From the NCBI GenBank assembly GCA_035453905.1, contig DAOTDZ010000014.1:86452-150451 (forward strand): a stretch of DNA of 64,000 nt. Direction: 5' to 3'. Shown here in pieces: positions 14,966 through 21,942 of the stretch (the first letter of the stretch is position 1; each line of letters begins with the position of its first letter). Under the pieces are notes generated by a model, which saw only the letters and a program-made list of their open reading frames with translations, searched no databases and was not told where the DNA came from. This DNA comes from Myxococcota bacterium (GTDB taxonomy: Bacteria > Myxococcota > B64-G9). The translations under genes and the position numbers were made by a program.

Positions 14966-16438
14966 ATGAGCGAGACCCCGGCACCTGTCCCGGGCCAGCG
15001 CATCCTCGTCATCGACGACGAGTCGGTCGTGTGCCTGAGCATCAGCCGCATCCTGACCGCGGGCGGCCACCGCGTCGAGTGCCGCACCAACCCCCTCGAG
15101 GGGCTCGAGCTGGCCACCCGGGACCCGTTCGACGTGATCCTGCTCGATCTGATGATGCCCGAGATGGGCGGCCTCGAGGTGCTCAAGCGCCTGCGCGAGG
15201 GCGGAGGGGCGGCCGAGGTGGTCATCATCACCGGCTATGGCACGGTGACCACGGCGGTCGAGGCCATGAAGCTCGGGGCGGCCGAGTACATCCTCAAGCC
15301 CTTCTCGCCCGAGGAGCTCGAGCTGGTCATGGCGAGGGTCCTGGCTCGCTCGCACCTGCTCAAGGAGTGCTCCCGGCTGCGCGTGGAGCTCGAGCGCCAG
15401 CAGGGCAACGGAGAGATCGTGGGGGCCAGCCGGGCCATGGAGCGGGTGTTCGGGCTCATCCGCCGCGTCGCCCCGACCCAGGGCACGGTGCTCATCACCG
15501 GCGAGAGCGGCACCGGCAAGGAGATGGTGGCCCGCGCCATCCACGACCAGAGCCCCCGGCGGGACCGACCCTTCCTGGCCTGTGACTGCAGCTCGCTGGC
15601 CCCCTCGTTGCTGGAGAGCGAGCTGTTCGGGCACGCGAAGGGCTCGTTCACCGGGGCGCTGGGCGCCAAGCAGGGCCTGTTCGAGGCCGCCTCCAGCGGC
15701 AGCCTGTTCCTGGACGAGGTGTCCAACATCTCCTACGAGATCCAGGGCAAGCTGCTGCGGGTGCTCGAGGCGCGCCGGGTCAAGCCCGTGGGAGACACCG
15801 AGGAGCGCGAGGTGGACATCCGCCTCATCGCCGCCACCAGCCGCGACCTGGCGGTGATGGTCGGCGAGGGGACCTTCCGGGAGGACCTCTTCTACCGGCT
15901 GAACGTGGTGCCCATCCACCTGCCCCCGCTGCGCGAGCGCGAGGGAGACGTGCTGCGGCTGGCCACCCTGTTCCTGGAGCGTTTCCGCAGGCAGAACGAG
16001 GTCCAGGTCAAGGGGTTCTCGCCCGAGGCCATGCGCCTGCTCGAGTCCTACCGCTGGCCGGGCAACGTCCGGGAGCTGAAGAACATCGTCGAGCGCCTGG
16101 CCATCCTGTGCGACGCCGAGCGCATCGAGCCGCAGCACCTGCCGCCCGAGATCCGCCAGGCCCGGGGGCTCACCGGCCTGCGGCCCCTGCCGCGGGACTG
16201 GGAGACCTTCAAGGAGCTCAAGCGCCAGGTGCGCGACGCGGCCGTGCAGGAGCTCGAGCGCCGCTTCCTGCTGGAGGCCCTGCAGCGCTCGGGCGGCAAC
16301 GTCTCCCGGGCGTCCGAGGACGTGGGCATGCAGCGCACCCAGTTCCACCAGCTGCTGCGGAAGTACGGGCTGGGCGGGGAGCAGGACGAGGGGACGGAGG
16401 TCCCGGGTCCTCCCCCGCAGGATCCCGAGCTCGACTAG
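14966..16438 (+). CDS. Sigma-54-dependent Fis-family response regulator (NtrC-like: REC + AAA+ sigma-54 activator + HTH)
   Basis: Receiver domain: ILVIDDE...DLMMPEMGG...KPF. AAA+ module: Walker A GESGTGKE, a GSFTGA loop and ESYRWPGNVREL. A C-terminal Fis-type HTH is present. ATG 14966 is preceded by GGAGAGGGAAGG. Confidence 0.9.
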   Translation: MSETPAPVPGQRILVIDDESVVCLSISRILTAGGHRVECRTNPLEGLELATRDPFDVILLDLMMPEMGGLEVLKRLREGGGAAEVVIITGYGTVTTAVEAMKLGAAEYILKPFSPEELELVMARVLARSHLLKECSRLRVELERQQGNGEIVGASRAMERVFGLIRRVAPTQGTVLITGESGTGKEMVARAIHDQSPRRDRPFLACDCSSLAPSLLESELFGHAKGSFTGALGAKQGLFEAASSGSLFLDEVSNISYEIQGKLLRVLEARRVKPVGDTEEREVDIRLIAATSRDLAVMVGEGTFREDLFYRLNVVPIHLPPLREREGDVLRLATLFLERFRRQNEVQVKGFSPEAMRLLESYRWPGNVRELKNIVERLAILCDAERIEPQHLPPEIRQARGLTGLRPLPRDWETFKELKRQVRDAAVQELERRFLLEALQRSGGNVSRASEDVGMQRTQFHQLLRKYGLGGEQDEGTEVPGPPPQDPELD

Positions 16439-16492
16439 AGAGCTTTCATACGCTGTCATTTCCCATCATACACCCACCGCCTCGGGGCGACT

Positions 16493-16575
16493 CCGCACCG
16501 GAAATAGATAACCAAACGATTTCAACGAGATAGTTTCTTTTTCAGGCCGGTCCCGCACCGGGCCCCTGCGCGTGC
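16493..16575 (+). promoter_or_regulatory. Putative upstream activating region (UAS) for an enhancer-binding protein, inside an AT-rich island
   Basis: The 9-mer CCGCACCGG occurs twice in direct orientation, at 16493-16501 and 16553-16561. The motif GCACC-N13-GCGTGC is also present, reminiscent of NtrC-type TGCACC...GGTGCA sites. A near-IHF-like ATCAAcgcaTTG lies between this region and the promoter. Confidence 0.3.
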
Positions 16576-19940: not shown

Positions 19941-19971
19941 GCGGCCCCCAAGGGACGAAGCGAGGAATCAC

Positions 19972-21942
19972 ATGACTCCCAAGATCGGCGTCTATGTCTG
20001 TCACTGCGGCACCAACATCGCTGGCAAGGTGGACGTGAAGGCCACGGCCGAGACCGCCAAGAAGCTGCCCGGTGTGGTGGTCAGCCGCGACTACATGTTC
20101 ATGTGCTCCGAGCCCGGGCAGGAGCTGATCCAGAAGGACATCCGAGAGCACAACCTGGACCGGGTGGTGGTATGCGCCTGCTCGCCGCTGATGCACGAGA
20201 AGACCTTCCGCCGGGCCTGCTCGCGGGCCGGGCTCAACCAGTACCTGATGCAGATGGTCAACATCCGCGAGCAGTGCTCCTGGGTGACCGAGGACAAGGT
20301 CCAGGCCACCGACAAGGCCCAGGCGCTGGTCGCCGGCGGCGTGGGCAAGGCCTGCTTCCTGCGCCCGATCAACGAGCGCGAGGTGTCGGTCAGCCAGAAC
20401 GTGCTGGTGGTCGGAGGCGGCATCGCCGGGATCCAGGCCGCCCTGCAGTGCGCGGACGCCGGATTTCACGTCTACCTGGTGGAGCGGAAGCAGTCGATCG
20501 GCGGCCACATGGCCATGTTCGACAAGACCTTCCCGACCCTGGACTGCGCGGCCTGCATCCTGACCCCCAAGATGGTCACCGTGGGGCAGCACCCCAACAT
20601 CACCCTGATGATCAACTCGGAGGTGGCCGAGGTGGGCGGCTACGTCGGCAACCTCAAGGTCAAGGTGCGCCGCAAGGCCAGCTACGTCGACCACTCCAAG
20701 TGCAACGGCTGCGGCATCTGCATGGAGAAGTGCCCGGGCAAGGCGACCAACGAGTTCGAGCAGGGCCACGGCAACCGCAAGGCCATCTACACCATGTTCC
20801 CCCAGGCCGTGCCCAACAAGCCCATCATCGACAAGGCGGCCTGCCGCTACTTCACCACCGGCAAGTGCGGCGTGTGCGAGAAGTTCTGCAAGAACAACGC
20901 GATCGACTTCAAGCAGGAGGAGCGGCTGGAGGAGATCGAGGTCGGGGCGGTGGTGCTGGCCACCGGCCACCAGGTGTACGACGGGGCCAAGGTCACCCGC
21001 TACGGCCTCGGCAAGCTGCCCAACGTGATCTCGGCCCTCGAGTTCGAGCGCATGGTGAACGCCGGTGGCTTCACCAAGGGAGAGATCAAGCTGGCCGACG
21101 GCAGCCACCCCAAGGCCGTGGGCATCATCCACTGCACCGGCAGCCGCGACTCCAACCACATGGTGCACTGCTCCTCGGTCTGCTGCATGTACTCGATGAA
21201 GTTCGCCCACCTGATCCGCGAGCACTCCGGCGCCGAGGTGTACAACTTCTACATCGATCTGCGCTGCGTGGGTAAGGGCTACGAGGAGTTCTACAACCGC
21301 ATGCTCGAGGAGGGGGTGCACTTCATCCGCGGCAAGGTGGCCGAGGTCTCGAACGACGCCCGCGACCCGAGCGAGGAGGGCAAGCTCATCGCCCGGGTGG
21401 AGGACACCCTGGCCGGGGTGGTGCGGCGCATCCCGCTGGACATGGTCATCCTGGCCAACGGGATCAGCGCCCAGCCCGACGCGGACGACGTGGGCCGCCT
21501 GTTCGGCGTCTCGCGCAACGCCGGCGGCTTCTTCATCGAGCAGCACCCCAAGCTGAACCCGTTCGGCACCCCCAACGGCAGCGTGTTCATCGCCGGCACC
21601 TGCGCCGGGCCCAAGGACATCCCCAACGCGGTGTCCCAGGGCGCCGCGGCCGCGGCCGGCGCCATGACCGTGCTCCGGCAGGGCAAGGTGCTGCTCGAGT
21701 CCACCGCGGCCCGGGTGAACACCGACCTGTGCTCGGGCTGCCGCACCTGCCTGGACATCTGCCCCTACCGCGCCATCTCCTTCGACGAGGAGCTGAAGCA
21801 GGCGCGGGTGGACGAGACCATGTGCCGCGGCTGCGGCACCTGCGTGGCGGCCTGCCCCTCGGGCGCCATCGAGGGCCGGCACTTCACCGACGAGCAAATC
21901 GCCTCCGAGATCGAGGGCTTGATGCGCACGCTGGGGGCCTGA
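19972..21942 (+). CDS. hdrA: Heterodisulfide reductase subunit A-like FAD / iron-sulfur flavoprotein
   Basis: An N-terminal Cys cluster CHCG precedes the FAD Rossmann motif VLVVGGGIAGIQAA. There is an inserted di-cluster ferredoxin domain with CNGCGICMEKCP and CGVCEKFCKNNA. The C-terminus has CSGCRTCLDICP and CRGCGTCVAACP. The protein is 656 aa, typical of full-length HdrA. Confidence 0.9.
   Translation: MTPKIGVYVCHCGTNIAGKVDVKATAETAKKLPGVVVSRDYMFMCSEPGQELIQKDIREHNLDRVVVCACSPLMHEKTFRRACSRAGLNQYLMQMVNIREQCSWVTEDKVQATDKAQALVAGGVGKACFLRPINEREVSVSQNVLVVGGGIAGIQAALQCADAGFHVYLVERKQSIGGHMAMFDKTFPTLDCAACILTPKMVTVGQHPNITLMINSEVAEVGGYVGNLKVKVRRKASYVDHSKCNGCGICMEKCPGKATNEFEQGHGNRKAIYTMFPQAVPNKPIIDKAACRYFTTGKCGVCEKFCKNNAIDFKQEERLEEIEVGAVVLATGHQVYDGAKVTRYGLGKLPNVISALEFERMVNAGGFTKGEIKLADGSHPKAVGIIHCTGSRDSNHMVHCSSVCCMYSMKFAHLIREHSGAEVYNFYIDLRCVGKGYEEFYNRMLEEGVHFIRGKVAEVSNDARDPSEEGKLIARVEDTLAGVVRRIPLDMVILANGISAQPDADDVGRLFGVSRNAGGFFIEQHPKLNPFGTPNGSVFIAGTCAGPKDIPNAVSQGAAAAAGAMTVLRQGKVLLESTAARVNTDLCSGCRTCLDICPYRAISFDEELKQARVDETMCRGCGTCVAACPSGAIEGRHFTDEQIASEIEGLMRTLGA

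Follow-up and report, generated by a model that had tools for sequence, protein, structure and literature searches.

A predicted sigma-54 operon that couples a four-domain response regulator, with a GcvH-like domain lacking the lipoyl lysine, to hdrCBA genes

In the FlxABCD-HdrABC system of Desulfovibrio and related anaerobes, reportedly described by Ramos et al. in 2015, the hdr genes follow the order hdrCBA and HdrA is full-length. A GcvH-like protein, the lipoate-binding protein LbpA, is associated with Hdr in the sulfur-oxidising sHdr systems, and its lipoyl lysine is present without exception in 95 of 95 LbpA proteins (PMC6067878). In the sigma-54 operon cbcBA of Geobacter sulfurreducens, hypothetical and regulator genes precede the redox genes (bioRxiv 10.1101/2021.04.15.440034). 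The locus described here lies in a 64 kb stretch of DNA with an overall GC content of ~72%, referred to below as the window, and comprises an operon that opens with a member of a small, previously undescribed family of four-domain response regulators.

From 5' to 3', and all on the plus strand, the locus consists of the gene for an NtrC-type activator, a -24/-12 promoter, the response-regulator gene, hdrC, hdrB and hdrA (Table 1). The last four genes are separated by gaps of 31, 2 and 31 nt with no terminator predicted between them, and their boundaries agree with an independent JGI gene call. Judged from sequence, these features support a single co-transcribed sigma-54 operon of regulator, hdrC, hdrB and hdrA. 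Profile matches, the exact promoter and the tight gaps bear out the anatomy proposed in the preliminary description, including co-transcription of the regulator gene with hdrCBA, the order of which is kept in relatives. Comparative evidence on those relatives strengthens the case for co-transcription, for sigma-54 control and for the fusion of a receiver to a GcvH fold. No histidine-kinase gene is present at the operon locus, a point that the preliminary description had overlooked, and the kinase expected to phosphorylate the regulator is absent from the 64-kb window.

Table 1. Positions of the operon features in the window.
Feature	Position	Strand	Basis
NtrC-type sigma-54 enhancer-binding response regulator	14966..16438	+	Pfam REC, AAA+ Sigma54_activat, HTH_8
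Intergenic control region	16439..16662	+	low GC; blocks conserved with closest relative
Sigma-54 type -24/-12 promoter, TGGCATGTGCCTTGCT	16663..16678	+	exact consensus match
Four-domain response regulator, 533 aa, first gene of operon	16758..18359	+	ORF and ribosome-binding site
Domain 1, canonical phospho-acceptor receiver	16758..17117	+	Pfam Response_reg 1.2e-33, aa 8-116
Domain 2, GcvH-like barrel without lipoyl lysine	17205..17531	+	Pfam GCV_H, aa 159-255
Lys206 codon, domain 2	17373-17375	+	
Ser209 codon, domain 2	17382-17384	+	
Domain 3, pseudo-receiver	17547..17888	+	receiver fold
Domain 4, family-specific alpha/beta domain	17946..18353	+	conserved ITNR, GLG, RLPGS and VQP motifs
hdrC-like subunit, two [4Fe-4S] motifs	18391..19044	+	Pfam Fer4_8, Fer4_17
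hdrB-like subunit, two complete CCG motifs	19047..19940	+	Pfam CCG 9.1e-26, two stretches
hdrA-like flavoprotein, full-length, 656 aa	19972..21942	+	NF040770; Pfam Fer4, FAD_oxidored

The activator, whose start is placed at 14966 by the JGI gene call and whose longest ORF begins at 14951, contains a Sigma54_activat domain (Pfam 5.3e-66) together with Response_reg and HTH_8 domains, and its GAFTGA-type loop reads GSFTGA. In NCBIfam it matches AtoC and NtrC best, in each case under the cut-off. Downstream of it, TGGCATGTGCCTTGCT is the sole exact match to TGGCAY-N5-TTGCW within the 64 kb window, and in 12-13 of 14 loci, which represent at least three phyla, a TGGCAC-N5-TTGC element lies 58-114 nt 5' of the homologous regulator gene. 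An activator of this type and a TGGCAC-N5-TTGCW promoter are thus found together, as expected at the sequence level for a sigma-54 regulon, and as proposed. Between the two, GC falls to 0.42-0.60 from about 0.72 window-wide, and the control region shares with the closest relative (locus L081) the blocks TGT..ATCATACAC, a T-rich stretch and ATGAAA..TATT..TTCA. It is a candidate activator-binding and DNA-bending region, relatively AT-rich as claimed for an upstream activating sequence, and the activator would bind there.

The products of the three hdr genes have the domain content of HdrABC. HdrC matches TIGR03290 (1.1e-20, under the cut-off), the cysteines of HdrB follow the pattern C-x31-CC-x37-CxxC twice, and HdrA scores 804 bits against the HdrA2 model NF040770 (cut-off 1100), aligning to positions 1-641 of the 777 in the model. 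HdrA comprises an FAD domain, an inserted ferredoxin and a C-terminal ferredoxin, without an MvhD-like extension. A two-CCG HdrB, an HdrC with two [4Fe-4S] motifs and an HdrA with FAD and ferredoxin domains are the components of an HdrABC-type module, and the single HdrCB pair with a full-length HdrA had been recognised correctly. Since all the NCBIfam hdr scores fall under the equivalog cut-offs, we regard the module as a relative of HdrABC and not an equivalog. No FlpD/MvhD-like gene, the expected partner for electron input, adjoins the operon in the window.

The first gene of the operon, with an AAGGAG ribosome-binding site at 16745-16750 ahead of the ATG at 16758, encodes a protein whose AF2 model has a mean pLDDT of 89.8. 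In its receiver the acidic pocket (D11, D12), the phospho-acceptor D55, T83 and K105 are all present, identifying it by sequence as a two-component response regulator, and 132-136 of 137 family members (at least 96%) retain these catalytic residues. The receiver is 48% identical to that of the neighbouring activator, and no locus-specific co-variation of receiver identity between regulator and activator is seen. The third domain is, as claimed, a degenerate receiver: Asp314 is retained at the end of β3, and the acidic pair after β1 is missing. The C-terminal domain (aa ~397-532), overlooked in the preliminary description, has no consistent Pfam match and no PDB sequence match. It is confined to 207 representative clusters out of 1.84 billion, in each of them alongside the GcvH-like domain, and its GLG motif shows weak, non-significant similarity to nucleotide-binding loops. 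An enzymatic output from this domain may exist; Pfam and NCBIfam profile searches detect no DNA-binding or catalytic domain in the regulator.

The second domain is a genuine GcvH-like domain, so that the proposed fusion of a receiver to a glycine-cleavage-H fold stands. Its GCV_H match over aa 159-255 (2.3e-11; 44 bits, the cut-off being 22) and a phmmer match to the pea H-protein (3.6e-10) both indicate the single hybrid barrel. The lysine that the preliminary description placed at the lipoylation position is another matter. In phmmer alignments with the pea, Thermus and E. coli H-proteins, ungapped through the hairpin, the canonical lipoyl position is occupied by Ser209, and Lys206 lies three residues before it, opposite the Glu of ESVK. 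That description had named the loss of the conserved lysine after proper alignment as fatal to its idea, and the lysine is indeed lost. The regulator is also ruled out as a canonical glycine-cleavage H protein: F-R-K-A-G-S replaces E-S/A-V-K-A, with Ser at the lysine position, and its neighbours are the activator and hdr genes, not gcvT or gcvP.

It could still be supposed that Lys206 is lipoylated and that the domain, like LbpA, ferries sulfur or electrons to or from HdrB, so that signalling by the regulator would be redox- or persulfide-linked. The fold is right, hdrCBA lies directly downstream, and in the model Lys206 sits in the loop of the hairpin (KAGSEP, between strands 200-205 and 212-216). 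Yet Lys206 is restricted to this protein's own clade, whereas the LbpA lysine is strict; in the family, Lys is outside the eight commonest residues of that column (each in at least 4 of 137 members), L, V and T being the commonest. A lysine displaced in this way is, according to what is reported of Wallis and Perham (1994), not tolerated by lipoylating enzymes. The canonical column does hold Lys in 32 of 137 members (23%), but in many of these it falls within a G-K-P turn, unlike any lipoyl site known to us. The flanking ORFs scanned (3060-32333) include no lipoate ligase, LipS, DsrE or TusA gene, and a cluster with a long hdrA and a single hdrCB pair does not belong to the sHdr type. We therefore consider a lipoylated carrier scarcely credible. 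With the lysine absent here and unconserved in the family, and the regulator tied more closely to the activator, the sequence does not support a lipoyl, persulfide or sulfur carrier; because the lipoyl-carrying lysine is absent, we take the regulator to be a conserved signalling protein instead.

The regulator family comprises 207 clusters at 50% identity, with about 75 full-length homologues, in Deltaproteobacteria-type, Planctomycetota and Sumerlaeota assemblies; no cultured carrier was found. We found no description of the receiver-GcvH fusion in the literature, in keeping with the claim that the circuit is undescribed, and no NCBIfam model covers it. An intact receiver joined to domains without recognisable catalytic or DNA-binding motifs might suggest a mere phosphate sink, or a decaying fusion without specific output. 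This is highly improbable: each of the four domains is conserved between phyla and retains invariant residues at 35-50% identity, the domain architecture hardly varies over the 207 clusters, and the fold is predicted with confidence along the whole chain.

Gene neighbourhoods were compared at 14 loci including the window, 13 of them with visible upstream DNA, and column statistics were drawn from 137 members. An NtrC-type activator lies directly 5' of the regulator gene in 12 of the 13, and a Cache_3-Cache_2/HAMP kinase 5' of the activator in L005, L081, L087, L088 and L089. The downstream genes are more varied. The regulator is followed by hdrCBA in the window, L003, L081, L082, L083 and L089, by hdrCBA and flx-like genes in L088, and in L002 and L006 by a second activator that precedes HdrD-like, Etf and HdrA genes, so that hdrCBA or other CCG modules follow it in 9 of 14 loci; the order regulator-hdrCBA is kept in Pirellulales and Deltaproteobacteria-type assemblies alike. 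Elsewhere it precedes hoxEFUYH, encoding a Hox hydrogenase (L085), a Fer4_11-NrfD-cytochrome c module (L087) or nothing redox-related (L005, L084, L086). Pairing of such fusions with hdrCBA is common in this sample without being general, and the link of the family to the NtrC-type activator upstream is tighter than its link to Hdr.

Gene order, domain content, the promoter, the missing lysine, family distribution and synteny together lead us to favour, as reasonably probable, a sigma-54 operon under the adjacent activator, in which the regulator is an accessory signalling protein and not a carrier. The phosphorylated activator would switch on the -24/-12 promoter at 16663, which would drive expression of the accessory regulator together with hdrC, hdrB and hdrA, the last three giving a full-length, bifurcation-type heterodisulfide-reductase-like module. 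The regulator would most likely provide the activator's own two-component pathway with a second output branch or a feedback element; its receiver, so close to that of the activator, would be served by the same Cache-type kinase, which is found in relatives and missing at this locus. Its role would be regulatory rather than catalytic, the non-receiver domains acting through protein-protein contacts or ligand binding, and not through DNA binding or covalent chemistry. The absence of such a kinase from the 64-kb window and of locus-specific receiver co-variation count against this explanation, as do the conserved cysteines, which a purely 'adaptor' model leaves unexplained.

A more specific version of the favoured explanation makes the regulator a ligand sensor that acts directly as an anti- or co-activator toward the NtrC-type activator or sigma-54, with the C-terminal β-loop-GLG-helix, the cavity of the GcvH-like barrel, or both, binding a small molecule, for instance a nucleotide, a cofactor or a thiol. 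PspA and similar anti-activators are encoded by the first genes of their own sigma-54 operons. The cbcBA operon of Geobacter also opens with hypothetical and regulator genes (bioRxiv 10.1101/2021.04.15.440034). By analogy, a regulator gene with its own sigma-54 promoter, whose tightest genomic link is to the activator, which encodes no DNA-binding domain and which at two loci has no other nearby target, might function similarly. Given how slight the resemblance of the GLG motif to nucleotide-binding loops is, we rate this version as unlikely.

The conserved cysteines C17, C20, C241 and C288, kept in 67-98% of the 137 members, suggest redox or metal chemistry and bear on a different possibility, that the regulator belongs to CCG-type (Hdr-like) enzymes as a regulatory or substrate-like subunit. 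In that case its lysine-less GcvH-like domain would dock on HdrB and the receiver CxxC, C241 and C288 would form a disulfide or metal centre reduced by Hdr, with phosphorylation gating the interaction. The Hdr/HdrD-type genes, where present, are always co-oriented and tightly spaced, and we know of no disulfide substrate of bacterial HdrABC beyond sulfate reducers and methanogens. However, some members precede the Hox or NrfD modules or stand alone, with no CCG protein nearby, and a third of members lack C241 (present in 67%). The motif C17-x-x-C20 of helix α1 (C17 in 129 and C20 in 134 of 137) has a similar counterpart in the partner activators and so points to a determinant of kinase docking rather than to a redox site. 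We judge such a subunit unlikely, while the regulator may have a direct physical role with Hdr, since Hdr-type CCG modules follow the gene in 9 of 14 loci.

Like LbpA (Cao et al. 2018, PMC6067878), the second domain has a GcvH fold, is encoded next to hdr genes and has extra conserved cysteine(s) absent from canonical GcvH. LbpA, however, is a free single-domain protein with a strict lipoyl lysine, whereas here the domain sits inside a response regulator with Ser at that position. The LbpA cluster has the order hdrC1B1A-hyp-hdrC2B2, with a short sHdrA and lipoate-assembly genes; here there are a single hdrC, a single hdrB and a 656-residue HdrA, with none of the lipoate-assembly genes nearby. 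FlxABCD-HdrABC shares with the window the hdrCBA order and a full-length HdrA; no flx genes are among those annotated around the operon in the window. In L088, FlpD/MvhD-like, ferredoxin and NAD_binding_1/DHODB genes after hdrCBA resemble flxDCBA. We know of, and found, no description of the four-domain regulator as part of a Desulfovibrio flx-hdr cluster. Methanogen HdrABC-MvhAGD shares the two-CCG HdrB, the HdrC with two [4Fe-4S] motifs and an HdrA2-type HdrA (641 of 777 positions), and differs from the present module in that the host here is bacterial, MvhD and a hydrogenase partner are absent, and the NCBIfam scores lie below the equivalog cut-offs.

On the regulatory side, the genes next to an NtrC-type activator in cbcBA/BccR likewise form a sigma-54-dependent operon that encodes an anaerobic electron-transfer module, the redox module there being a b/c cytochrome and not Hdr (bioRxiv 10.1101/2021.04.15.440034). 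In Anaeromyxobacter and in many other assemblies, lysine-less proteins that carry the annotation 'glycine cleavage system protein H' share the GcvH-like barrel, and their genes too lie close to those of NtrC-type activators and of anaerobic redox modules (Fer4_11-NrfD). These are short proteins, either anchored in the membrane or simple REC-GcvH fusions, with another C-terminal extension, and have neither the pseudo-receiver nor the family-specific fourth domain. The best full-length Foldseek match to the regulator is PleD, in which a phospho-acceptor receiver is likewise joined, within a single chain, to a second, degenerate receiver fold. In PleD the receivers are adjacent and the output domain is GGDEF, whereas in the regulator they are kept apart by a GcvH-like barrel and the chain ends in an unclassified output domain.

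The observations in the preliminary description of this locus largely hold, and its mechanistic claim of a lipoyl lysine in the regulator does not. The gene anatomy it gave is correct, with an NtrC-type activator, a sigma-54 promoter, a response regulator and hdrC-hdrB-hdrA following one another on the forward strand. Gene boundaries match independent gene calls on the corresponding 215-kb contig of JGI metagenome 3300009776, and no terminator-like sites were found between the four genes at 16758–21942. None of HdrC, HdrB and HdrA reaches its NCBIfam equivalog cut-off. The intergenic region that holds the promoter shares conserved blocks with L081, the closest relative among the related loci in other assemblies (L-numbers). 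Across the 64 kb, whose G+C content is ∼72%, the consensus TGGCAY-N5-TTGCW is matched exactly by the −24/−12 element alone; tolerating one mismatch gives 4 hits, compared with 2.4 expected by chance. A 15-nt inverted repeat with perfect spacing (CGGTCCGGACCCGAA/TTCGGGACGGGACCG) occupies 16693–16722, downstream of the −12 element and ahead of the ribosome-binding site in the leader, and is poorly conserved in L081; as an RNA structure it was rejected, its fold being no better than that of shuffled sequence (z = −0.92).

Features of the locus, domains of the regulator, and genes found downstream of the regulator gene here and in related loci
Feature	Position or loci	Strand	Details
NtrC-type activator gene	14966–16438	+	Response_reg, Sigma54_activat (5.3e-66), AAA_lid_14, HTH_8 (Pfam)
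Intergenic region after activator			320 nt; G+C down to 0.42–0.60
Sigma-54 −24/−12 promoter	16663–16678	+	TGGCATGTGCCTTGCT; exact TGGCAY-N5-TTGCW
Ribosome-binding site AAGGAG	before ATG at 16758	+	precedes regulator gene
Regulator gene	16758–18359	+	first of four tightly spaced genes
hdrC	18391–19044	+	two [4Fe-4S] motifs
hdrB	19047–19940	+	two complete CCG motifs
hdrA	19972–21942	+	full length; HdrA2 model 804 bits, 641/777 model positions
Regulator: receiver	aa 1–120		AlphaFold model
Regulator: disordered linker	aa 123–142		AlphaFold model
Regulator: GcvH-like barrel	aa ∼150–258		AlphaFold model
Regulator: second flavodoxin-like domain (pseudo-receiver)	aa 264–377		AlphaFold model
Regulator: fourth domain, alpha/beta	aa 397–532		AlphaFold model
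Downstream: hdrCBA	window, L003, L081, L082, L083, L089		
Downstream: hdrCBA, then flxDCBA-like genes	L088		
Downstream: second activator, then HdrD-like, EtfBA and HdrA genes	L002, L006		
Downstream: hoxEFUYH	L085		
Downstream: Fer4_11-NrfD-cytochrome c	L087		
Downstream: no redox-related genes	L005, L084, L086		

Pfam identifies Response_reg at residues 8–116 of the regulator (1.2e-33) and GCV_H at residues 159–255 (2.3e-11, above the gathering score). The AlphaFold model, for which 38 homologues were aligned, is confident, its mean pLDDT being 89.8. Its C-terminal fourth domain has no match by profile against PDB sequences and none against Pfam. Across 1.84 billion library representatives this domain is restricted to 207 clusters, nearly all of them proteins of ∼520–560 aa with the same architecture, or fragments, and it is always accompanied by the GcvH-like domain. 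A STAS-like fold, hinted at by the order of secondary structure, was rejected at the sequence level (hhalign probability 0.07), although the test is weak because the STAS query sequences were approximate.

Assemblies labelled Deltaproteobacteria, Thermoguttaceae, Pirellulales, Phycisphaerales and Sumerlaeota encode some 75 full-length homologues (37–77% identity), none annotated as anything more specific than 'response regulator'. No NCBIfam model covers the regulator, and no description of a REC-GcvH regulator was found in the literature. The receiver is catalytically intact across the family, with D11, D12, D55, T83 and K105 each present in 132–136 of 137 members, and its helix α1 carries a C17-x-x-C20 motif (C17 in 129/137, C20 in 134/137). 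Cys288 is found in 122/137, Cys241 of the barrel in 92/137 and Asp314 of the pseudo-receiver in 127/137. We conclude that this protein is a genuine, conserved and uncharacterised response-regulator variant heading sigma-54-controlled Hdr-type operons.

The reading of the regulator hinges on the lipoyl lysine, which had been placed at Lys206 by aligning FRKAGSEP with ESVKAAS and would make the regulator a carrier like LbpA, the lipoate-binding GcvH-fold protein of sulfur-oxidising sHdr systems. In phmmer alignments to solved structures, however, which are ungapped from the strand before the hairpin through the PVSGE motif, the lipoyl lysine of the pea, Thermus and E. coli H-proteins falls opposite Ser209, and Lys206, which precedes the lipoyl position by three residues, pairs with the Glu of E-S-V-K (codons checked). 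The proposed pairing would need the sequence moved by three residues, for which the profile alignments give no support; the other two motifs aligned at that time, PVTGEVVEVN and GWIARI, were correct. The hairpin strands in the model comprise residues 200–205 and 212–216, which puts Gly208/Ser209 at the tip and Lys206 at the base of the loop. Among the 137 family members the canonical lipoyl column holds Gly in 52, Lys in 32 and Arg in 10, and the Lys206 column Leu in 43, Val in 22 and Thr in 15, with Lys outside the eight commonest residues. The lysine is strictly kept in 95/95 LbpA proteins (PMC6067878). Lipoylation at Lys206 was rejected on the alignment to the H-proteins and on family conservation, and a lysine at the lipoyl position of this H-fold domain is refuted. 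The lipoylated carrier, an attractive but unsupported idea that the present result corrects, is thus a very improbable role for the regulator.

The wider set of lysine-less GcvH-like proteins includes short REC-GcvH fusions beside kinases and membrane-anchored forms. The former are regulators of ∼260 aa, together with versions of ∼390 aa anchored by a transmembrane helix (L010, 8001–8792; L035, 5264–7267; L079, 7989–8762; also L007, L009 and L031), encoded directly after histidine kinases, with NrfD and cytochrome c genes alongside, and all lack Lys at the lipoyl position. A lysine-less GcvH-like barrel thus seems to be an output domain that response regulators have used repeatedly. The membrane-anchored forms, of ∼230–250 aa and likewise without the lipoyl lysine (L047 from Anaeromyxobacter oryzae, 10161–14108; L034, 7786–10941; also L030, L023, L042, L060 and L067), amount to at least 1135 clusters and have in common a C-terminal extension, QDGG.P..GIA...W..L...FL. 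Their genes adjoin Fer4_11 and NrfD genes, near NtrC-type activators. Automatic annotation labels lysine-less GcvH-like proteins 'glycine cleavage system protein H', and cultured Anaeromyxobacter is no exception; on the membrane-anchored forms this label is probably a misannotation, and a large set of such annotations is probably wrong.

An NtrC-type activator gene lies directly 5′ of the regulator gene in 12 of the 13 loci with visible upstream DNA, and a TGGCAC-N5-TTGC element is found 58–114 nt 5′ of it in 12–13 of 14 loci. The downstream genes vary (HdrB homologues in the related loci were identified by Pfam CCG matches), and the regulator's constant partner is therefore the sigma-54 activator, not Hdr. 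At L085 (25–6707; Candidatus Sumerlaeota) the regulator is followed by a cluster for an NAD-linked [NiFe] hydrogenase of the hoxEFUYH type instead of hdrCBA. Further out in the window, 7788–14285 (−) encodes a 2165-aa secreted protein with dozens of ∼45-aa Cys-rich repeats (NGCE.N.W....CG..C), and ∼22100–24719 (+), 3′ of hdrA, a PAD_porph (agmatine/peptidyl-arginine deiminase-like) protein with Cys-rich, MopE-like repeats of this kind; the two also flank the operon in L081. The group at 24738–27210, two adjacent DUF2330 paralogues (419 and 397 aa) and then a methyltransferase and an APH-type kinase, appears unrelated to the operon.

In L081 and in the more distant relatives L005 and L087–L089, a ∼650-aa Cache_3-Cache_2/HAMP kinase is encoded between a conserved ∼212-aa gene and the activator, and in L003 a Phosphonate-bd kinase takes its place. 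The window locus has no histidine-kinase gene (14300–14966), the ∼212-aa gene being only 12 nt from the activator gene (27 nt to the JGI-called start), and tblastn found no trace of the Cache-type kinase in the 64 kb; activator and regulator are thus orphans in this genome region. Their receivers are 48% identical. Partner activators (window 14951–16438; L003, L084, L086–L089) also have a Cys motif in α1, LSC or, in L089, VVCLSC, at the same place as C17-x-x-C20 of the regulator. It is unusual for a kinase-docking helix to carry cysteines. No locus-specific co-variation between the two receivers was seen. Helix α1 is the main kinase-docking surface of receivers, and this role, the identity and the common motif together suggest that one kinase may phosphorylate both proteins, in a pathway that would be branched.

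Domain content, promoter and conserved synteny point to a circuit in which the adjacent activator, once phosphorylated, would switch on the sigma-54 promoter and yield a regulator-hdrCBA transcript; the regulator would then be induced by the very pathway to which it belongs. No DNA-binding or catalytic domain was detected in the regulator, and its output is therefore most likely protein–protein contact or ligand binding. On balance, we favour a feedback or co-regulatory element of the activator pathway. The main competing explanation, that the regulator acts directly with CCG-type enzymes through its conserved cysteines, has their retention across the family on its side and the varied downstream genes against it, and seems rather unlikely. 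It is less likely still that the lysine-less GcvH-like domain docks in the LbpA manner on CCG-type enzymes, with the α1 CxxC, Cys241 and Cys288 as redox group instead of lipoate; in that case the regulator would serve Hdr as a protein-thiol substrate or would sense it, and Hdr turnover would be fed directly to the two-component/sigma-54 circuit.

Beyond methanogens and sulfate reducers, bacterial HdrABC-like modules are widespread. The Cache kinase, NtrC-type activator and four-domain regulator constitute a control cassette before such modules, conserved over several phyla, and give experiments a concrete starting point for asking when, and by what means, these electron-bifurcation-type enzymes are deployed. 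The regulator itself is an undescribed response-regulator architecture, and a GcvH fold from which the lipoyl lysine has been lost is part of its output.

The system differs from sHdr/LbpA in having no lipoyl lysine, a single hdrCB pair and a long hdrA; because of these differences, and because no lipoate-assembly, DsrE or TusA genes occur among the neighbouring genes scanned, we conclude that it does not belong to the sHdr/LbpA systems. Its Hdr part is similar to the Flx-Hdr and methanogen type, and its regulatory layout resembles that of other sigma-54 operons for anaerobic respiration, among them Geobacter cbcBA with BccR, where the operon likewise opens with hypothetical and regulator genes.
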